A DNA stretch of 64,000 bases from Perna viridis (Eukaryota), in assembly GCA_037379345.1 (NCBI GenBank), contig CM074525.1:3729170-3793169 (forward strand), read 5' to 3'. A program made the translations under genes and the position numbers. The notes below the pieces were generated by a model. That model saw nothing but the letters and a program-made list of their open reading frames with translations. It was not told the origin of the DNA and did no database searches. Below, one piece after another: positions 1 to 60,190 of this stretch. Position 1 is the stretch's first letter, and every line of letters begins with the position of its first letter.

Positions 1-41
1 GATGTAAATAAATAGCGTGGGCGTGCACCGAGCTGTCATCT

Positions 42-302
42 CTCTACACGTTGACGTACTCCAAGTTGTTAGAGTGGGGAAACGCTCTCGGACCCAAGTG
101 GAGTCTGGGAGTAGTCCAGGGCGTCAACACAATAGCCTAGCCGCTAGTAGGACATACTCTGACTGAGTTCTTCGGTCAGGTATCCCGAAGGCAGGGCTCC
201 GCTACCTTCTACTATTAACTTGCATTACTAACAGAATCCCCGTAAGGGGCGGTTGTGCGAGATCCGTAAGGATAGTCAAGACCGCAAAATTCCCCCAATC
301 AT
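42..302 (+). mobile_element. 261-bp GC-richer, highly structured insert (unclassified non-autonomous retroposon or retrocopied structured RNA)
   Basis: Perfect 16-bp direct repeat CACCGAGCTGTCATCT at 26-41 and 303-318 (TSD). Multiple hairpins with G-U pairs and GNRA loops on + strand. Ends in a stem-loop followed by AAAATTCCCCCAATCAT. Confidence 0.75.
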
Positions 303-3076
303 CACCGAGCTGTCATCTGTTCCTTTGATCTTTTGACAGACAGTCGGAGAAGCAAATTAGCATACTACGCAAATTATGGTTCAAAGTCAAATGATTAGTC
401 TTGGCCAAAAAATGGTAATTTCTAATTACTTGTAAACTTTTATAATGTTATTGTTTATTACTTGCAGACTGTTCTGACGTCTGCTGGGGCTTACTTTTCG
501 AGGAAATTACTCCAAGTAAACCTTTGGCAACACCAATTAAAAGTGTTTGGTGCTGCACCAAGTGAATGACTTGGTGCACAAATTATTACTTAAATTCTTA
601 TAGAGTTACGGGATATTGAGTTTTTATTTATTAACTTGGTCACCTTTGTAAAATGCTTTGATCCTGCACCAAACTGCCCCAGGTGCAGTTTGCACCAAGT
701 ATATGTATGTCGAAGATTTCTGTGATTAGGATCCACTGTATCATCATATTTAATTTATCATATTGTTATAACCTATGTATGCAGAATTTAAGTTATTTAT
801 ATAAATTATTGGACTTCCATCCAATCTTTAGTATTATTTCCTACACCAGGGAATAGTTGGGGCGTTACAATACTGTACATTTTCTACATTGATTTAAGAC
901 TATATAGGTACACTGGAAGTGCTCATCCTTTGCTAAAAATTGCAATGGGATCATGATCACGACGAGCTCTATATAACTGTAATTTCTGTGTAAATTTTGA
1001 AATCCAAAAGATTTTTTTTCCTAATCGGATTAGCTAACTGACATTAGGCACACAGTTTTCATTATTAATCGCTGACTTCCTGTTCTAAATTACGTCACAA
1101 AGAATAGAAAGATTTAGTGTCAGAGGGTATGACTGTTTAGAACAGCTTTTCGTTTGTCATTTTCACGATCTAGGACTGTCAGGATTTCTGTTCAATCTAC
1201 TATCGTAGGTTAGAAGTCATCGCAACTGTCGAATTAAAAACTTTAATTGAAATCATGATAAAATAAGAAACTTTTCCATGTGTATTTAAGCTTTTCACTT
1301 ACGTGACCGAGGGTCCAATTGTAACTTCAATTCGAAGACGAATTTTCTTGCCAAATATGAAGATTTGTAACTTTTATGGACCTAACGATTTTTAACCCTA
1401 GACTCTTTTTGAATCTAACGTTTTGACAATGAACCTTTAAGAATCTTACTGTTTTACTATGGAATTGTCACTTGAAGCCTACAATTCAACGATAACAATA
1501 AAATCACCGAAAGAACAATGGGAGCTGTACGAAATAAGTGATTAGTCATTGATAGAGTCTGTCGTAAACAGGTGACAAAAACTTATTCGATGATTGATTC
1601 GTCTTCACTTGTTAAAGTAAAAATCTAATATACGTCTTGATTGGGAATAACAATTGTGTAGAGGAAAAAAGACAATAAAATTTACTAAACTACATTATTT
1701 TACAATTGTCTTTGATAAGCTCGGCGTTTAGTTTAACACAGCATAATCACCATGATGTTGCCATGTTTTTGTTTAAATTGTGTTGGTAATCAATAGGGAC
1801 CATTGTAAAATATATTGCATCTGTTTTATTTGAAAGAAGCAATCAGGCCGGTCAAGTATTCCTAAGAATCTTAAAACAAAAACATCGATTCAACAGTTAA
1901 AATATCATTGCGCTTCATTTCCTTTGGAAAACTTGTACAGCTTTAAGTTCTTTCACAGAGTTAACATTCTACAGAAAGTAGTTTTTCTACCAAAAATATT
2001 TTCTTGCACGAAATCTGGATTTCCACAAATTTTGTCACAAAATGTTTCTTGTCTCGCTTCATGCGGCCTTTCATTCTATTTAAACGTATATTTGTAATCT
2101 CTATTCCTGACCCCCTCTCTGTGATCCATAACTTTAAACAAGCGGAATGCACAAATCTATTTTATTTAGATTGAACAGGAAGGTTTTGTTTATGTAAATA
2201 ATAATTTAATACTATAATGGAATGTTATTGTCCTTAAATATGAAAGCGTATTTTGATGTATATGATTGATGGCATCACATCGTATAAATTCAACGAAATG
2301 GTATATTGTATGTATTGGTGCCAATATTTTAAGCCATATAGTGAATGTCACCGAAGAGTTATGTTGTAGATCAACATTTTCATGTTTGTTTTTACCATAT
2401 TCAGATGATGCCGATTTTGAAACAAATATTTCAATATATTGAAAACTTAAAACTATTTTCACTTAACCGAAAAGTAAGAGGCAAGAATGGGCTTGAAAAA
2501 TTAAGTTATTTCAAAGTATCCAAGAACTTACCGTAGTTATAACAATTCAATATTTTTAATTTGAAGTCAACTGCTGTTCATTATTCCAACTAGACAGTAA
2601 ACCAGTCTGTCGGATAGGAGAGTTACTCCCCTTTGTTTAAAAGTATAAAAAAAACAAGTCAGTGTCCGGAATATTAAAAAAATGACTTGTGATAATTTTT
2701 TTTTATTTACTGTTCTCTAAATGTAAAGCGAAATTACCAGACAGGAATGGAACTTTCTTTTCAAATATGGTCAATGTCAATAGAAATGGTCAGTTCATGT
2801 AACAGCTATCAATACTGACCAAATTTAGTTACCATTTTCTTTTAACGACATTCGAAAATCGATCTATTATAGTCATTTCAATGTCTTTATGTGCTATGGT
2901 AGATGCGAATAATTGCTATGATTTACCTAGATAGGACTACAGTAGCACTCCGGCTAAGAATCATGCAAAATGTGAGCCAATATATTTTTATTGTTGATTT
3001 TGTTTAAAATGCTTCAGTAAATAGAATATAGCATGTTGCTTTTCATAAAACCCTAGAAGGCTTGTTCATAAGAGAT

Positions 3077-8300: not shown

Positions 8301-9054
8301 TTTCCATACCATGTTTCACCGATTGCCCGATTCTTACAGAGACTGACACTAAATAAACCATCTATCTATCTGTACTATAGAAAAATCTACTCAAAAACTT
8401 GTCGTGGTTTATTAACAGTAATTTAGATATTAATCAAATAACTAAATCTACTAATTGACACGCAATGGGAGTTCTATAAAGACAGATTATCTACTTTGTA
8501 TCTGATGCACTGTCATTACTCGTTATTTCGTAATCTTCTCATTTATAACAAAGCTTGTTAATGTCACAGACTACCAGACTATATTAACTAGCAGTAGAAC
8601 TGACAAATGCGTACAGATTGCCTAAACTTTATGGAAATAAAATTTCAATAGTGTATCCGTCACCAACTACGATACAATGCCTGTCTGTCAGCGTCAATGA
8701 TTGTGTCCAACATTAAATGTGAAATTCGACTATCTGCATGTCTTTGATTTCGATGTAAGCCACGTTGAAAGTCCGTCTGTCACTGACGACGATGTAAGCC
8801 TATCTCTCATCGATTACGATGTAAGCATGTCTGTCAATAATAACGAAGATGAATCTGTCTGTCTCAGACTATGCCTGTCCCCAATACTCATTCCGAGGTT
8901 CGAATGACAGCCCGTTTGTCTCTGGCAACGATCTGTGCCTTTCCGTCGCCGACTGAGATATTTCGTCCTTTCGGCTAAGACTATGCTGTAGGCCCGATTG
9001 TTATCTAATAATATTTATGTCAATTATCGTCCTTTGGTCTTTATTGTGACAAAC

Positions 9055-9870
9055 AGCCAGTAAGTCTCATGTTGTGAAAAACAGCCTGTTAGTCTTTGTT
9101 GTGAAAAACAGCCTGTTAGTCTTTGTTGTGGCACAGCCTGTTAGTCTCCTATTGTTTCCTATTGTGACACACATCCTGTAAGTCTTCTATTGTTTTCTCT
9201 TGTGAAATACAGCCTGTAAGTTTCCTATTGTAAAACATAGTATGAAAGTCTCCTAATGTTTACTACTGTGAAAAACAGCCTGTTAGTCTCATTTTGCGAC
9301 TCTTAGCCTGTTAGTTTTTATTGTGACGCACAGCCTTGTTAGTCTCCTATTGTGATGCACAGCCTGTAAGTCTCCTATTGTGACACACAGCCTGCAAGTC
9401 TCCTATTGTGATACACAGCCTGTTAGTTTCCTATAGTAAAACACATTTAAGTCTCTTATTGTGATGCACAGCCTGTCGATCTCCTATTATGACACGGAGC
9501 ATGTTAGTCTCCTATTGTGATGCACAGCCTGTTAATCTCCTACTGTGACACACAGCCTGTTAGTCTCCTATAGTGAAACACAGGTAAGTCTCTTTTTGTG
9601 ACGCACAGTCTGTTAGTCTCCTATTGTGACACATAGCCTGTATGTCTCCTATCGTGACGCACAGCCTGTTAGATTCCTATAGTGACACACAGCCTGTAAG
9701 TCTCCTATCGTGACGGACAGCCTGTAAGTCTCCTTTCGTAGCACACAATATGTTAGTCTCCTATTGTGACACAGCCTGTAAGTCTCCTATCGTGACACAC
9801 AAAATGTTAATCTCCTATTGGAAAACACTTGTAAGTCTTTTATTGTGAAATATAGAATGTAAGTCTCTTA
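9055..9870. repeat. Minisatellite, ~28-bp unit (acagcctgttagtctcctattgtgacac)
   Basis: Tandem periodicity of 28 (e.g. agcctg at 9361 and 9389); degenerate related units from ~8640. Confidence 0.95.
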
Positions 9871-12800
9871 TTATAGTGTGAGGTCTGTATGTCTGTCTTC
9901 TTTTCTGATACAGTTGCGATCTTTTTATTCTCTCTTAAATTCTGCCAGAACCTGTTAGGAAAACTATTCTATGACAGCAGATAGAAGATGAATCTAGCTG
10001 ACAGATCCTGACAGAAGCTCTCCTTAGAGGGGATATTCTCACAACAGCTGTTATGGGTCGTGACAAAGATGTGTTCTGAGCTGTCATACCTACTGACACA
10101 AGCAAAATATACTGCGTGAAGAATAATTAATTAAAATAACACGTCCGTTTACAAATAACTATTTTAAAATGTACGGTGTATTACTCAACTTCTGATTTAG
10201 CGCTAATCCCTCAATATTCAATTATCACTCTCTCAATCAATCATGTTTCATTTTTCATCCCTCGGCACTCATAGCTCAATCACTGGTGTCTTATAGTTCA
10301 AATCGTTATTCAGTACGTACTGACAGAGAGTGTCACGACCTACAACAGATTATGACCGAGTTAGTCCAAAGTCATGGCAAGTTCTGACAAGATGTTTCGC
10401 GTGTCAGAAGAGTTTCTGACAGTTTATAACTATGACAACAAACCCTGACAGATTAGAAAAGAGGTTAGAAGTGATCGCTATTGTAAATGTCTGGCTAAGA
10501 CACAAATTATAAATATACAGTCAACTGTTTGTTTCAATAAATATCATAAAGAATGTGACAGCACCTTTCTTATTTTAACAGTGTAGATATCCTCGTGAAA
10601 TGTAACCTTTTTCCAAAGCAGCTTCCTCCAAGCATGCTAAGATAAATGCCAGTCTCTATAAAAATCGGACAGTTGGTGAAAGATGGTATGAAATAGGCCA
10701 CAAATTGGAAATTGTAATTTGTGTAATGATTTTTTTCAACCGACAAAGTCATAAACCTTCCTTTAAGTCTGCTGAGATAAAATCCAGTCTCTATAAGAAT
10801 CGGGCAGCTGGTGAAACACGGTATTAAATTATTTGCAACTTTGACAGCGTGTTACGTGTACCGAGCGTTTATGTAAAAACATAATGTTTCTCATTTCTGT
10901 ATTTCTCAAAGGGTTCTTTTAGGGGTCTTCATTTATTCTTAAGTTAAACTGTTCTCGACGCCAGAACAGGAAAACTTATTTATATAAACACAATGATATA
11001 ACTATTCTCTTTACTCAGAATTAATCTAACTAAATCAAAATCAACTCAATAGGTGTTATCTAAACCCTTAATAGAAACTTCCCACTGAGTATAAACCCTT
11101 AATATAAACTTCCCACTGAGTATACTCAGTGAGTTACTCAATGGAACATTTACTGAAACGAAATGAGCAAAGTACCTAATTCAATTTTTACTTAATCGTC
11201 ATATAAAAAACACAATTATCTTAATGGTATCTAGACGATGTCTATCGCTGAGAACGAGGCTCTCGCCAAAAAGATTATCTGATACTTAATACTACTTCTC
11301 TGTAGAAGTATCCTTTATATAACACAATTAACTTTGTATCACAATTTAGACGATGTCGATCGCTATGCGAGACTTTCTTCTAAGCTCTGTGACCACCAGA
11401 TCTAAAAGAGAGCGAATTACATGTATCAGTGGCTTACTTCAAAATCGTACACTATAACTTCTAATGACTATATATAGAATGGACTATATTTAAATCTCTC
11501 GCGATGGTCAACGTAATTGTTTACATAACAGATTAGAGGGATTCAACTGATGTATTTTGCTGATAAAAGGGTCATATAATTTGTCTAACTTTGAACAAAA
11601 TTGTTGACAGTATAATGGACAGTTGACCATAAATCAATAAATCAATTTCATTACAAGTGTAACTTGATCATTTAGCACCAAATTTAAGGAATGAAGAAAT
11701 TATAAATTTAAAGTTCTATCGAAATGCGTGCCAAATGAAATGATCATAGAAAAACAAAAACAAAAAGATTTAAAACGGAAAAAAGCGTAGAAACTCATTT
11801 TTATCTAACCTTCTAATAGGAATGTACCCATATATCCAGTGATGCAGAGATCAAATATTTAATATTATTGAAAAGAAAAAGTCTTTTTTCACATTCTGGT
11901 GACTGAAATTAGAGCATCTGATCAATGGGCTTTTCACATGCATGTTTCAGTATTTTATTTCTATTTTGCTTCAGCACGTGTATTACTTTTACGGTGACGC
12001 TTGTTTTATTCCAATTTATACACGACGAAAAGTCTGGACCCACTGTCTTGTCAATAATGGTACATTTAGACATGTTGTGTTGAAGATTATTTCGTTTTAT
12101 CTTTTTATTTTACCGTAGAAAAATAACGACAATACGATCATTATCTTATTTTTGTCAAATAAGTTATCAATAGTTATAAATATGAAGTTCGTTGGCCTTA
12201 TGAATTCTATTTTGTAGAAGATCGTCTTAAAACAGCGATTAATTTGAAGGTATAGCTGAATGGATACATTGTAGTACCTAAGGGCTTACAAATGTCGTCT
12301 CCTGACCCTGTGAATAATTGGAATTACTCCCTATTATCAACGAAACTTTTTGTTTGTAAATATAATGACAGAAATGAGACGCTTGAGAGGTTGTCCACGT
12401 AAAAAAACAGGCAGATCCTTTGATATACATGGCACATGAAAAATTTTATTCAAAAGAATTTTTTCTTCCAAATAATGTTTTGTTTATATGTTTGTATGTC
12501 CAAGTAGTAAAAAGACTTTTTAAAGCGACAATGGAAAAAAATTAAAGTTCCCTGATAAAATAACCAAGAAAAAAACCCGTAATTTTTAATAGAATTCTCA
12601 TTTTATCAACACAAAATAAAAATACATGTTGTTGGAAAATAGCCACAATTTTCGTCAAAATCAATTTATCATAGCAGCATGATACCACTTGTTTTAGGTT
12701 CAAGCTTGGAATTCGATTATGAGTATTTAGCAGCCAATAAAGCTGCCAATGAAGCCTTTCAGATAAAAGATGGTATATAAAATCATATATGATGCAATAA

Positions 12801-14168: not shown

Positions 14169-14672
14169 ACGATTGATTGATTGATTGATTGTTGGGGTTT
14201 AACGGCCGAGCAGCAAATTTCACCTATATTCAGGCGATGAACATGAAGTGGATGATAAAATGAACATGAAATGATGATGAAATGAAAAATGGGATGGGAC
14301 ACAAGGATAATGGGGTCGACGAATTTTTATTGCCACCGGAAATAGGTAGAGGTGGGTAGGGTCGGGCAATTTAGCCTCCTGTGACGGAGCCCTATGGTTC
14401 CTACTCCTGGGGAATACCACAGTAGGGTTTTTTAACGTGCGAGGAACTTGGCATCTTTTCCAACACGACCCACCACCATTATAGCCTGACAACCCCAGCA
14501 TGTAACACACCAGGGGTACCCCATTCCACCACCTGGGGCACACATCCCAGTTGCTCTGTGGGAAGAGCGCCCTAGCCCCCGGCTAAGGTTCTGAGCACTA
14601 CTTAGTCGCCTTTTACGACAAGCTTAGCGCGGCTGCAGGCCTGTTCTTTTGACACCCGGACCTGCACGGGTC
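14169..14672 (-). mobile_element. Nin/Deu-core SINE-like retroposon, copy 1 (nested in LINE)
   Basis: (AATC)n tail; 10-bp TSD ATCGTACACG 14159-14168 / 14673-14682; family match. Confidence 0.92.
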
Positions 14673-15523
14673 ATCGTACACGGTGAAGAACACTGATCCT
14701 AATGTAAGCTTTTTTTTAACGATAAAGCTCAATATGGTCATGCTAAGAATCGTCACCCAGGTGTTTGTGACTAAACACTTCAAAATTGTTCATCTGTAGA
14801 GCGGGGTGAATGTGTCGGGTAGGTTTACGCTATATCAGCATTGCTTCTGTTGTTTTTTTAAGATTAAATCTAATATGCCACTCCGTAGCCCATTAGTGGA
14901 TTTTTTTTCAGATGTCTATATTCAATGCAAGTGCTGTAATGTATGGATTCTTATTATAACATATAGACTAGTGTCATCGGCAAATAGATACATGCATTGG
15001 AATCTTTCACTTAAATAGCTACATGTACTAAACCAGGGCTAAAGGCGCCCGGTTGTACCATACTGTTGTAACTTAAACAATTAACTGTTATGCCAGACAC
15101 GATAAAAGGCCTTGGAAATGTCACAAAAGATAACGCAAATTTCCTGACCATTGTCCAAAGCCTGGCCGAACGAATTTGGTATATCGGTCAATTGATACAT
15201 GTATATAGCCGAATCTCCGTGAGTGAACCCAAACTGGTGCTGAGTAATAATTCGATTGTCTCTCAAATAACAGTTAATGTGTATGTTAACACAACGTTCC
15301 ATACAATTTGAAATTATACTGACAAGTGAAATATGATGATATTTCTTGACTTTTCGCATAACTTAACAAACAGAACAGAAATTTTTTTATTTATAGTCAG
15401 ATGCACATTACAGAAAACATAAGCTCTGTAGAGCTTTTATAGCGACTCGCATAAACAAATCAACACATACAAGTACACAAAAGTCATGCAGACATACAGA
15501 TACATAATTAGACGCACGTAATA

Positions 15524-17428: not shown

Positions 17429-18344
17429 ACTGCTTTATCCATTTAAAGTATATCAATGCTATTGTGCGCTTTATGCGAGATTCGTTTGAGAACAAAATTA
17501 TTATTAAAATTATCCAATGTTTAATCATCACCTCAACTGTAATCAATAATATGTAGTTACAAAATCGTATTAGTGTATTGCCTATGAGTAATTGGCAAAA
17601 TTATTGGCCCTTTGGCAAACAACAGATGACCATATTTATTGCCATTTGTCAGAAAAAAAATGGTTCGATTCGTTACTCTACGGATGTGATCGATATCTTT
17701 ATCAAGAATAAGGTCTACGCGTACGAAAACGAGCTCAACAGGCATTCGTACATCTCAGCACCATAATAGATATATTTCCAAGATAGATACTTAAGCTGGC
17801 ATGTTTATATTTAGTAAGGGATAGTTAAGAGTATTATAGTCTAGTTGAGAAAATACTACCGCCTATAAACCAGTCACAAATAATCTGTTCATGTGTAATA
17901 TTCCAGATGCATTCTGTGTTGTGGTTAGCATGATTCAAAGATGATGGTATCTTAGGTAATAAAACTATTTTCTTTTCGGTTACATTTATATAATCAAATA
18001 CGTTAAATGGTCATCGGGAAGTTATTGAATATTGATGTGATTTGAATCTCAAAGCATTAAACATTAACCGTTATAAGTCTATTGATGAACATTGAAGCGG
18101 ATATGACGGTACACTGGAAACTAAATTGGATTTGTTTCCGTCGAAAAACGTGACCGACGTTACTAAAATATAATATATGTTTCACACAGCAGTTTTTCCA
18201 TATATCTCCAAAACTGTTGTAGGTTAAGCCAAATTCTGATACAGAGAAATCTGTTGAGCCATGTTCATGTTGAAGTTAAATCCCTTTTTGGACGTATTTT
18301 TGCTATTTTCAATATTATTTATATCAAAATTCTTCTCAACTAAT

Positions 18345-20670
18345 GTACACCTCACATCAATGTGATCGGTTGTACATCCCACATCAATGTGACATGTTGT
18401 ACACCTCACAACAATGTGACATGTACATCTCACTGCAATGTAACATGTTGTACACTTCACAGAAATGTCAAATGTTGTAAATCCACAGCAATGGAACATG
18501 TTTTACATTTCACAGCAATGTAACATGTTGTACACCTCACAGCAATGTAACATGTTGTGCACCTCACAGCAATGCAACATGTTCTACACTTCACAGCAAT
18601 GTGACATGTTCTATACCTCACAGAAATGTCACATGTTGTAAATCCACAGCAATGTAATATGTTGTACACTTCACAGCAATGTAACATGTATACCTCACAG
18701 CAATGTCACATGTTGTACACCCTAAAACAATGTGACACGGTGTACACATCACAGAAATGTAACATGTTGTACACTTCACAGCAATTCAACATGTTGTACA
18801 CTTCACAGCAATGCAACATGTTGTACACTTCACAGCAATGTAACATGCTGTACACATCACAGCCATGTAACATGTTGTACACATCACAGCCATGTAAGAA
18901 ATTGTACACTTCACAGGAATGTAACATGTTGTACACCTCACAACAATGTGACATGTAGTACACTTCACAGCAATGTAACATAACATGGTGTACACTTTAC
19001 AGCAATGTGATATGTTGTACACCTCGCAGCAATGCAACATGTTGTACACTTCACAGCAATGTAACATGTTGTACACCTCACAGCAATGTAACATGTTGTG
19101 CACCTCACAGCAATGCAACATGTTCTACACTTCATAGCAATGTGACATGTTCTATACCTCACAGAAATGTCACATGTTGTAAATCCACAGCAATGTAATA
19201 TGTTGTACACTTCACAGCAATGTAACATGTATACCTCACAGCAATGTCACATGTTGTACACCCTAAAACAATGTGACACGGTGTACACATCACAGAAATG
19301 TAACATGTTGTACACTTCACAGCAATTCAACATGTTGTACACTTCACAGCAATGCAACATGTTGTACACTTCACAGCAATGTAACATGTTGTACACATCA
19401 CAGCCATGTAACATGTTGTACACATCACAGCCATGTAAGAAATTGTACACTTCACAGGAATGTAACATGTTGTACACCTCAAAACAATGTGACATGTAGT
19501 ACACTTCACAGCAATGTAACATAACATGGTGTACACTTTACAGCAATGTGATATGTTGTACACCTCGCAGCAATGCAACATGTTGTACACTTCACAGCAA
19601 TGTAACATGTTGTACACCTCACAGCAATGTAACATGTTGTGCACCTCACAGCAATGCAACATGTTCTACACTTCATAGCAATGTGACATGTTCTATACCT
19701 CACAGAAATGTCACATGTTGTAAATCCACAGCAATGTAATATGTTGTACACTTCACAGCAATGTAAAATGTATACCTCACAGCAATGTCACATGTTGTAC
19801 ACCCTAAAACAATGTGACACGGTGTACACATCACAGAAATGTAACATGTTGTACACTTCACAGCAATGCAACATGTTGTACACTTCACAGCAATGTAACA
19901 TGTTGTACACATCACAGCCATGTAACATGTTGTACACATCACAGCCATGTAAGAAATTGTACACTTCACAGGAATGTAACATGTTGTACACCTCACAACA
20001 ATGTGACATGTAGTACACTTCACAGCAATGTAACATAACATGGTGTACACTTTACAGCAATGTGATATGTTGTACACCTCACAGCAATGCAACATGTTGT
20101 ACACTTCACAGCAATGTAACATGTTGTACACCTCACAGCAATGCAACATATTGTACACTTCACAGCAATGTAACATGTTGTACACATCACAGCCATGTAA
20201 GAAATTGTACACTTCACAGCAATGTAACATGTTGTACACCTCACAACAATGTGACATGTAGGACACTTCACAGCAATATAACATAACATAGTGTACACTT
20301 TACAGCAATGTGATATGGTGTACACTTTACAGCAATGTGACATGTACACCTCACTGCATTATGATATGTTATACACCTCACAGAAATATCACTTCTTGTA
20401 AATCCATAGCAATGTAACATGTTGTACACTTCACAGCAATGTAACATGTTGTACCCCTCACTGCACTGCGACACGATGTAGACCTCACAACAATGTGGCA
20501 TATTGAAGACCTTACAGCAATGTAACATGTTGTACATCTCACAGCGATGCCACATGTTGTACACCTAACATCAATGTAACATATTGTACACTTCACAGCG
20601 ACGTGATATGTTGTACCCCTCACTTCAATGTGACAAAATCTATACTTCATCACAATGTGACAAGATGTAC
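18345..20670. repeat. Satellite, 27-bp monomer (acacttcacagcaatgtaacatgttgt) with 541-bp higher-order repeat
   Basis: Diagnostic variant monomers recur at 18720/19261/19802 (spacing 541). Confidence 0.97.
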
Positions 20671-20851: not shown

Positions 20852-21149
20852 AAGTGTCCTGGCGGCAATACTTTTTTTTTGTTTCTGTTTTGTCATTTGT
20901 AATGATACTGTAACGAAATTGGTATTTTTTCCTTTGACGTCATACAAATTTGTTTTGCTATTTCTAGAAAATTGTATATGACAGATTGGAATTAGTCATC
21001 AAATTCAGCACGAAATTGATTTACGTCAAGCCATTAAATGATTTGGAAATTATAAACAGATAACTCAGTCTTTTCCGCTTTTTTCTACCTACTTATTTGG
21101 AAGAGCAATTAAAGAAACCAAGACTCCAGCGAAAATCAAAAGAATGGCT

Positions 21150-21670
21150 GATTGATTGATTGTTGGATTTAAAGCCCGAGCAGCAATATTTCAGCTATAT
21201 TTAGGCGATGAACATGAAATTGGTGATAACATGAACATGAAATGATGATGATGAAATGGAAAGAGGGACGGGACACACGGGTGATAAGGTCGACAAATTT
21301 TGATTGCCACTAGAAAAAGGGAAGGATGGGTAAGGTCGGGCAATTTAGCCTCATGTGGCGGAGCGCAAAGGTTCCTTCTCCTATCGAATAACACAGCAGG
21401 GTTCTTTAACGTGCGAGGAACCTGGCATCATTCCCAACACGATGCTCCACTATGGTTTGCGGTCAGGTTTTCCGTATTGTAGCCAGACAACCCCAGCATG
21501 TATCACGCCAGGTGTACCCCATTCCACCACCTGGGGCACACATCCTAGTTGATCTGTGCACAGAGCGCCTAGCCCCCGGCTAGGTTTCTGAGCATTATTA
21601 AGTCGCCTTTTATGACAAGCTTAGCGCTGCTGCAGGCCTATTCTTTTGACACCCGGTCCTGTACGGGGCT
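21150..21670 (-). mobile_element. Nin/Deu-core SINE-like retroposon, copy 2
   Basis: (AATC)n tail, full body, head ...cccggtcctgtacggggc. Confidence 0.9.
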
Positions 21671-21890
21671 CTGGCATCCAGGAACAAAGACCAGACATGG
21701 AAACACAACAAAGAACATAACACTACCAAAAACAATATATGAAAAGTAACAAAAGCAAAAATAGGAGCATGAATCAGGTGTACCGGTAGGGTAAGCCTAT
21801 GCTGCTTTTTTTTAGAAATACCCGTCAAGTTGCTCATACATTTGTAAAAAGTCAAGTTCAGGGTAGACGAAAGAGGAAAGGTAATTACGT
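21671..21890 (-). mobile_element. Penelope-like 3' UTR fragment
   Basis: ggagcatg..caggtgtaccggtagggtaagc...cccgtcaagttgctcata matches the PLE 3' UTR. Confidence 0.75.
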
Positions 21891-57329: not shown

Positions 57330-57600
57330 GTAAATGTTTTATGTTTTTAGTTTAAGTGAATGCTTTATGTTTTCTGTTTAAGTGAATGTTTTCTGTTTAA
57401 GTGAATGTTTTGTTTTTAGTTTAAGTGAATGTTTTCTGTTTAAGTGAATGTTTTGTTTTTAGTTTAAGTGAATGTTTTCTGTTTAAGTGAATGTTTTGTT
57501 TTTAGTTTAAGTGAATGTTTTCTGTTTAAGTGAATGTTTTCTGTTTTCTGTTTAAGTGAATGTTTTATGTTTTCTGTTTAAGTGAATGTTTATGTTTTAA
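57330..57600. repeat. Low-complexity minisatellite (gtttaagtgaatgttttct, ~19-25-bp variants)
   Basis: Tandem copies visible. Confidence 0.9.
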
Positions 57601-59519: not shown

Positions 59520-60190
59520 TCATTAATATTGGCATTTTTTCCTGGTGTCTTGAGTCTGGATAACGTGTATTGTTTCGGAACAATAGTCTTCTCATTTTTC
59601 CTGGTGGCTTGAAACAGGATAACAACGTGTCTTATTTCGGAACAATAATTTTCTCGTTTTCCTGGTGTCTTGAGTCAGGATAACGTGTCTTATTTCGGAA
59701 CAATAGTTTCTCATTTTTCCTGGTGTCTTGAGTCCATATAACGTGTATTATTTCGGAACAATAGTCTTCTCATTTTTCCTGGTGGCTTGAATCAGGATAG
59801 CCCCGTGCATGTCCGGGTGTTAAAAGAATAAGCCTGCAGCAGCGCTAAGCTTGTCGTAAAATGCGACTAAATAGTGCTCAGAACCCTAGCCGGGGGCTAG
59901 GGCGCTCTACCCACAGATAACAACGTGTCTTATTCGGAACAATAGTCATTTTATGTTTCCTGGTGTCTTGAGTCAGGATAACGTGTCTTATTCCGGAACA
60001 ATAGTCTTCTCATTTTTCCTGGTGTCTTGAGTCAGGATAACAACGTGTCTTATTCGGATCAATAGACTTCTCATTTTTCCTGGTGTCTTGAGTTAGGATA
60101 ACCTGTCTTATTCGGAACAATAGTCTTCTCATTTTTCCTGGTGGTTTGAATCAGGATACCAACGTGTCTTATTGGGAACAATAGTCTTTT
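59520..60190. repeat. Intronic minisatellite, ~59-61-bp unit (tttcctggtgtcttgagtcaggataacgtgtcttattcggaacaatagtcttctca)
   Basis: cctggtg at 59541, 59600, 59661, 59719 and onward; an outlying unit at ~59260-59330. Confidence 0.93.
59800..59916 (+). mobile_element. Head-only fragment of the SINE-like retroposon inside the minisatellite
   Basis: gccccgtgcatgtccggg...gctagggcgctctacccaca, then satellite resumes. Confidence 0.88.

Follow-up and report, generated by a model that had tools for sequence, protein, structure and literature searches.

HDV-like ribozymes have been described in R2, RTE, R1, R4, LOA and Ingi elements (PMC5786205, PMC3774820), and Nimb is absent from the six clades given in the accessible part of PMC5786205. 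Active trypanosomatid L1Tc-type ribozymes cleave at C1 (PMC4035085). The U.G pair in loop L3 counts as a hallmark of HDV-like ribozymes, and search descriptors incorporate it. When all 16 U23/G28 combinations of the antigenomic HDV ribozyme were assayed, C23/A28 was the sole active double mutant, cleaving 40% in 2 h with a k2 of 0.0075 per min, 232-fold slower, and the paper describes it as unknown from nature (PMC3386971). G25 has been described as rigidly conserved, and in one wasp R2 ribozyme and one nematode ribozyme the single change G25A removed cleavage or impaired it badly (PMC3774820, PMC13635239). Nimb partners have been reported for bivalve SINEs (PMC11481361). For the LP-SINEs of molluscs, the accessible text of PMC4758252 puts forward a promoter and brings in ribozymes solely as an analogy; this was the only paper found in a literature search on Nimb-type non-LTR elements with ribozymes.

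We analysed a 64,000-nucleotide stretch of Perna viridis DNA (the window), in which an earlier, sequence-only reading had pointed out an insert within a target-site duplication (TSD). The insert is flanked by a perfect 16-bp direct repeat on the + strand, at window 26-41 (5' TSD) and 303-318 (3' TSD), as that reading had stated. It belongs to a family of SINE-like retroposons 265 nt in length; this copy (window 40-304, +) has tail type A and is 93.6% identical to the family consensus. The element starts with the CACTCT of the consensus, the first two bases of which fall at window 40-41, two bases before the start first given; the last two bases of the 5' TSD overlap consensus positions 1-2. 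The proposed check for an empty site was borne out by contigs in which the flanks are joined with a single repeat copy between them, 277 bases being skipped and 16 bases fitting either side. These contigs came from two of four sequencing runs, both of the same sample. They are covered about 4-5 times as deeply as single-copy contigs, so the flank is possibly paralogous and allele and paralogue are indistinguishable; the empty site may thus represent a paralogous flank and not an allele. The flank itself (window 1-25 and 319-740) appears to be a low-copy repeat, with a contig depth several times that of single copy, and short inverted repeats occur in the 3' flank near window 552-590 and 664-697.

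All eight of the claimed helices that were checked can pair in the window copy. The fold had also been held to be strand-specific. This is true of the 4-bp GNRA hairpins, of which there are two on the + strand and none on the - strand, and the folding bias was weaker than claimed, with z scores against shuffles of -2.16 (+) and -0.70 (-) for the window copy and of -3.1 (+) and -1.9 (-) for the consensus. The absence of a tRNA-type promoter was confirmed, as no A or B box was present and ARAGORN found 0 tRNAs. The suggested Rfam search left the window copy unmatched except for one 12-nt chance match (E=5); the near-consensus copy and an LP-like SINE of the window had none, and the single match of the head of LINE D (described below) was likewise at chance level. 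The element does not resemble a Pol III SINE derived from tRNA, 5S or 7SL, having no A/B boxes and no tRNA or Rfam match.

To the earlier suggestion that further copies be sought, the 723-Mb genome, in which the window lies at G000:C15, gave 1315 first-look candidates and hence a dispersed family. Of these candidates 40 were scored and 30 retrieved; the 40 scored copies, the window copy itself excluded, were 88-92% identical to it. A 29-mer from the head had 79 exact matches in the genome (reversed control, 0), and mean identity to the consensus was 92.6% (38 of 50 head-selected loci). By our own arithmetic, 79 exact matches at this identity correspond to roughly 700-1000 copies, and the genome likely holds about a thousand. 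The consensus is 265 nt long, begins with CACTCT and ends in (CAT)n. Among 74 loci examined, 71 had the head and three lacked it, and 59 of the 71 heads reached base 1-3; when loci were selected by the tail instead, 34 of 44 were full-length, that is, reached the 5' end. TSDs of at least 8 nt (8-18 nt) were found in 49 of the 59 full-headed copies, a count that comes from a lenient search (at most one mismatch) and stands without a chance control. The TSD ended exactly at base 1 in 19 of these 49 copies, overlapped base 1 in 16 and left 1-6 extra bases in 14; an additional G preceded base 1 in only two of these 14. The same head and middle hairpin are followed by one of three tail types (A, C or E). 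The idea of a non-autonomous retroposon is therefore upheld by many dispersed copies, the lack of an ORF, fixed ends, TSDs of variable length, an empty site and a 3' end shared with a LINE: the family is a genuine retroposon, non-autonomous and high in copy number, whose tail is of LINE type.

Several further observations concern the distribution of copies. Tandem or same-site insertions of the SINE were seen at four loci (L058, L160, L156 and L131) and as joints in empty-site contigs, copies lie directly behind LINE B tails at three others (L013, L019 and L086), and two heads occurred within 600 nt in three of 98 strand hits. An internally deleted copy (L019:467-592, -) has its first 16 nt joined to a type C tail and carries its own TSD. 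Contigs of four sequencing runs guessed to be RNA contain the element; its start, strand and level cannot be read from contigs. The metagenome contigs gave a single match with unrelated flanks, which was taken as chance.

Downstream of the head, the middle hairpin (window 134-198, +) is common to the three tail types and folds with a z score of -4.2 in the consensus. The loop-E-like AGUA (146-149) opposite GAA (187-189), noted in the first analysis, is present in the consensus, as are the two GUAA-capped hairpins. The GNRA-capped hairpin at window 238-249 (+) has GUAA in type A and GCAA in type C. It is followed by a 3' stem-loop of LINE type (250-284, +), in which the internal loop is conserved and which shows covariation with the 3' terminus of LINE family B. 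The A/C-rich run and (CAT)n end of the consensus come next (285-304, +). The tail is 82% identical to the 3' end of LINE B over 51 nt. We compared the tail stems of five sequences (the window copy, types A, C and E, and LINE B): 97.8% of 45 cells were paired and three of nine pairs had changed on both sides, and none of 500 shuffles scored as high, although relatedness may inflate this score and slid controls reach 22-51%. The internal loop was nearly invariant across the five tails.

LINE B, an old element some 7 kb long, aligns with ORF2 of a second family, LINE D, across endonuclease, RT and RNase H, and is of similar age to the SINE family (pairwise identity 88% versus 85%). LINE D (L111-L124, for example G000:C15:5529011-5535083) is a young, intact 6.07-kb LINE with copies 98-99% alike, an ORF1 of 491 aa and an intact ORF2 of 1247 aa that includes endonuclease, RT and RNase H. 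Both families are probably of Nimb/I type, judged from their EN-RT-RNase H architecture and the features of that clade. No autonomous LINE with this head or the exact tail was found among the 50 head-selected loci, in families B and D or in a partner search. In that search, made with RNase H and RT pieces of LINE B, the best 150 of 680 and the best 150 of 4312 candidates were scored; the matches listed separated into two groups by identity, one being family B and the other lying at 30-41%, and the 16 retrieved from the latter proved to be family D. RT fragments lay downstream of the head at three of the 50 head-selected loci, all of them partial. These results suggest that a Nimb/I-type LINE is very probably the mobilising partner, and mobilisation itself almost certainly proceeds by target-primed reverse transcription, in which the LINE protein would bind and copy the 3' stem-loop.

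The window also contains an abundant LP-SINE-like family, at 34990-35500 (-), 14170-14680 (-), 21140-21680 (-), 36360-36800 (+), 38880-39410 (+) and elsewhere. It presumably carries a Nin/Deu-like motif. It has a head of LP type (as in the accessible part of PMC4758252) and a stem-loop tail, and is distinct from the family of the insert. A stem-loop and then an A/C-rich run close both the insert and the LP-like SINE; the tail likeness that had been suggested between them was not significant, since 364 of 500 shuffles scored as high. Alignment of the middle hairpin (134-198) with the LP-like SINE body (35201-35260) was not significant either (229 of 500 shuffles); both segments close with GGGCTCCGC(T/C)AC, preceded by a stem that carries GAA on its 3' side. 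Minisatellite arrays with units of 19-60 bp lie at 9036-9902, 18301-20041, 28548-29631, 38170-38401, 49207-50499, 57346-57579 and 59538-60173.

Descriptor and folding predict that the head of the element (window 40-128, +) forms, in its consensus version, an HDV-type nested double pseudoknot; in the window copy this fold is broken. All of its parts lie on the + strand. The 5' strand of P1 (40-46), with an Inr-like start, pairs with 70-76, and the segment 70-78 comprises this 3' strand and the GG of P1.1 (77-78). The 5' strand of P2 (50-57) pairs with 121-128 at a probability of 0.87-0.99. P3 and L3 occupy 58-69 (ACT-CCCAAAY-AGT in the consensus), and a DPE-like AGTTA of the consensus (67-71) overlaps their end. 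In the consensus, the P4 hairpin (84-112) is 12 bp long, 84-95 pairing with 101-112 at a probability of 0.71-1.0, and J4/2 (113-120) contains C117, the predicted catalytic cytosine. In consensus numbering, P1 is 1-7/32-38 (seven Watson-Crick pairs), P2 11-18/83-90 (8 bp), P3 19-21/29-31 (3 bp), L3 22-28 (7 nt), P1.1 C23-G40 and C24-G39, and P4 46-57/63-74 (12 bp), with C79-A80-G81-A82, a CNRA, directly before P2. A topology descriptor without sequence rules for L3 matched the consensus only at base 1 and nowhere on the other strand. It matched two of 3000 shuffles anywhere and 0 of 3000 at bases 1-3, a looser descriptor matched 10 of 3000 shuffles of the consensus head, and with P2, P4 and CNRA fixed and the rest shuffled, P3, P1 and P1.1 arose in 2 of 200000; these figures overstate the case, because the descriptor was written after the sequence had been seen and shuffling destroys the three pyrimidine and three purine quasi-repeats of the head. 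P2 and P4 are part of the MFE structure, and P1 and P3 have a pair probability of 0 in the pseudoknot-free ensemble. The HDV core was kept in 23 of 64 aligned copies under lenient rules. No covariation was seen for the head, whose three subfamilies are too alike to reveal it, differing only at positions 7 and 28, and the A7T variant (18 of 64 copies) breaks the last pair of P1. On balance, the head probably adopts, or descends from, an HDV fold.

Relative to the consensus head, the window copy carries A2T, a lost C, A27G, A29T, G64A, G77T and A82G. The lost C and two of the substitutions fall in P3 and L3, P3 and the CNRA adenine are lost (CAGA has become CAGG), and A2 of P1 is T. Because of these changes, the window copy is predicted not to cleave. 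The sequence-only reading could not fit the insert to HDV, which holds for this mutated copy, as it matches no descriptor, and fails for the family consensus, which fits the HDV topology from base 1. Its suggestion of a possibly catalytic 5' domain gains support from the same predicted fold.

The active-site loop is unusual. Compared with the published descriptor as far as PMC4870747 was accessible, the head agrees in its helices, the purine after P1 and CNRA, and departs from it in the first pair, C1-G38 where R:Y is specified, and at L3 positions 1, 5 and 6. L3 reads CCCAAAY instead of UYYHCG(N)Y with its U20.G25 pair, so that U20, C24 and G25 are all missing and positions 1 and 6 are C and A. 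No genomic copy matched a canonical L3 loop. We do not class the head as an HDV-like ribozyme, because it lacks two defining sequence features and its activity is predicted only. As modelled, its self-cleavage may be slow or absent, and we put cleavage by the master RNA at slightly below even odds.

Two other heads were compared. LINE D begins with C1, and its first 144 nt are predicted to fit an HDV-like fold with a G-C P1.1, a loop UUGUCGU(G) and ACUAA; seven of 10 copies fit the looser descriptor, as did 22 of 3000 shuffles. The head of the LP-like SINE resembles, by eye, a minimal HDV-type ribozyme without P4 (7-bp P2, loop UUGUCGU, GACUAA), and it did not fit our HDV descriptor.

A Pol II core promoter may combine an Inr at the start with a downstream DPE of consensus RGWYV. 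The consensus has an Inr-like start, and its AGTTA at base 29 lies at +28 if A2 is taken as +1. LINE B starts at CA and has AGTCA at base 29 in one of three copies and at bases 30 and 35 in the two with insertions, and none of the three copies has an HDV fold at its 5' end. Since the DPE-like spacing thus matches that of LINE B, which has no HDV fold, the constancy of the 5' end does not in itself prove cleavage; an Inr/DPE-like promoter could account for it alone. Judged from these motifs, the head is somewhat more apt than not to act as an Inr/DPE promoter for Pol II. A frequent 4-base deletion removes both the 3' strand of P3 and the DPE, with 20 exact matches versus 79 for the intact sequence. 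The 20 deleted heads are spread over tail types A (4), C (3) and E (5) and unassigned tails (8); both alleles at positions 7 and 28 are represented among them, and private variants were not seen. This distribution speaks against a single deleted master as the source. The middle hairpin has a second recurrent 4-base deletion. Recurrent slippage during copying is favoured, because both deletions lie between short direct repeats; mosaic masters are a possible alternative source of the 4-base deletion in the head. RT stops at P1 have been reported for L1Tc-type ribozymes (PMC4035085). If deleted masters are active, neither P3 nor the DPE element would be needed.

The strongest rival explanation keeps the same retroposon and makes the head an internal Pol II promoter (Inr and DPE) only, with the HDV-type fold a leftover, no longer active, of a 5' ribozyme from a LINE, its loop having drifted. 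The AGTTA of the consensus and the AGTCA at the same base in one LINE B copy speak for it, as do the A7T subfamily variant, the loss of U20, C24 and G25 from L3 and the existence of correctly folding yet inactive SIDER heads (PMC4035085, in the part accessible). Five helices and CNRA remain intact in the consensus, however, which is unlikely for a long-dead relic, and the loop carries the one double substitution reported as tolerated (PMC3386971). The chance of a 5-base DPE match, about 0.02 per position by our own arithmetic from RGWYV, also weakens the promoter argument, and we regard this explanation as unlikely, if still a serious competitor.

Another possibility is that the head is a nested junction or a degenerate tRNA-like cloverleaf, formed either by the three-way junction first proposed as domain 1 or by an 8-bp helix 18-25/68-75, and that the HDV match is a by-product of the quasi-repeats. 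The nested junction lies at -34.6 kcal/mol against -35.8 for the MFE structure, 1.2 apart, the helix 18-25/68-75 has eight Watson-Crick pairs, and the 7-bp outer stem of the cloverleaf resembles a tRNA acceptor. Yet the proposed domain 1 is not the MFE structure: its CUGGG/UCCAG helix has only four of five pairs in the consensus, and helix 58-63/99-104 gains a G.U in the consensus and sits on a deletion specific to the window copy. The nested helices have a pair probability of about 0.24 against 0.71-1.0 for P4, and stacking sums, added by hand without loop terms, are -58.8 for the HDV fold and about -52 for the junction. The head has no A/B box, tRNA or Rfam match, and this reading leaves unexplained why P1 starts exactly at base 1 (2 of 200000), making either structure improbable. 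A retrocopied cellular ncRNA or viral UTR, as the sequence-only reading had alternatively proposed, or a hammerhead retrozyme would suit a compact structure with loop-E and GNRA motifs but is largely refuted by the LINE-derived tail and copy structure of a dispersed family whose LINE-type tail is exchanged among three types, by the absence of any Rfam match, by 0 matches in viral contigs and by the lack of the hammerhead core CUGANGA on both strands, and is very improbable.

The explanation we prefer, at a probability of roughly 0.55, is that the insert is a decayed copy of a retroposon with a LINE-copied tail and a head in which a promoter overlaps a predicted slow HDV-type fold. The head would define the RNA's 5' end by way of this internal promoter, and the overlapping fold would cut slowly, just before base 1. 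A broader and more tentative proposal, based on the modelled folds, is that a natural, active HDV-like ribozyme with a C.A pair so far reported solely from laboratory mutants, together with a Pr77-like Inr/DPE promoter, heads an animal SINE family, and that Nimb-type LINE and LP-SINE heads carry HDV-like ribozymes too, forming a widespread class of ribozyme-headed SINEs missed by standard descriptors. Were C.A present in a successful retroposon, it would be a natural alternative active site, and current searches would overlook some ribozymes. Such a finding would also touch on the question, raised for LP-SINEs, of how 5' ends arise in SINEs that lack a Pol III head, and it would add Nimb-type elements to those with 5' ribozymes. 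If there is no cleavage, the family is an ordinary SINE headed by a promoter, though an undescribed one. Neither this family nor a naturally occurring C.A variant was found described in the largely open-access literature searched; the family or the LINE ribozymes may already be recorded in subscription papers or in Dfam/Repbase.

Among known systems, as described in the accessible parts of the papers, LP-SINEs of molluscs (PMC4758252) are likewise about 255-265 nt long with TSDs, a tandem-repeat end and no tRNA head, and for them, as here, Pol II transcription and a Nimb link are proposed. By eye, the present head is unlike the 68-70-bp Nimb-17-like (Nimb-17_LMi) LP head of Fig. S2 in that paper, and of six motifs sought in its supplements, as far as these were available, five were absent and one was a chance match. 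The R2, RTE, R1, R4, LOA and Ingi ribozymes (PMC5786205, PMC3774820), with which bipartite non-autonomous LINEs (PMC3414825) may be grouped as a close system, have the same predicted topology, helix lengths and 5'-end position as the present head, and likewise CNRA in J4/2; here, by contrast, L3 and the first pair fall outside the PMC4870747 descriptor and the tails are exchangeable. The engineered C23/A28 antigenomic HDV ribozyme (PMC3386971) shares the C and A at L3 positions 1 and 6, but is a laboratory mutant, and position 5 is also changed here, A for C. A further close likeness is to NARTc, RIME and SIDER with Pr77 (L1Tc/ingi; PMC3185411, PMC4035085, PMC4748587), which are also short and non-autonomous, with an HDV-like fold from C1, a promoter with a downstream core element over the ribozyme and an I-group partner with RNase H. 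The present family differs from these in its animal host, in a Nimb-type stem-loop tail with (CAT)n and not poly(A), in C.A instead of U.G in L3, in an activity that is only predicted and in having no parent LINE found. By analogy with these elements, the retroposon is one that would work like NARTc and RIME, with a predicted head of Pr77 type.
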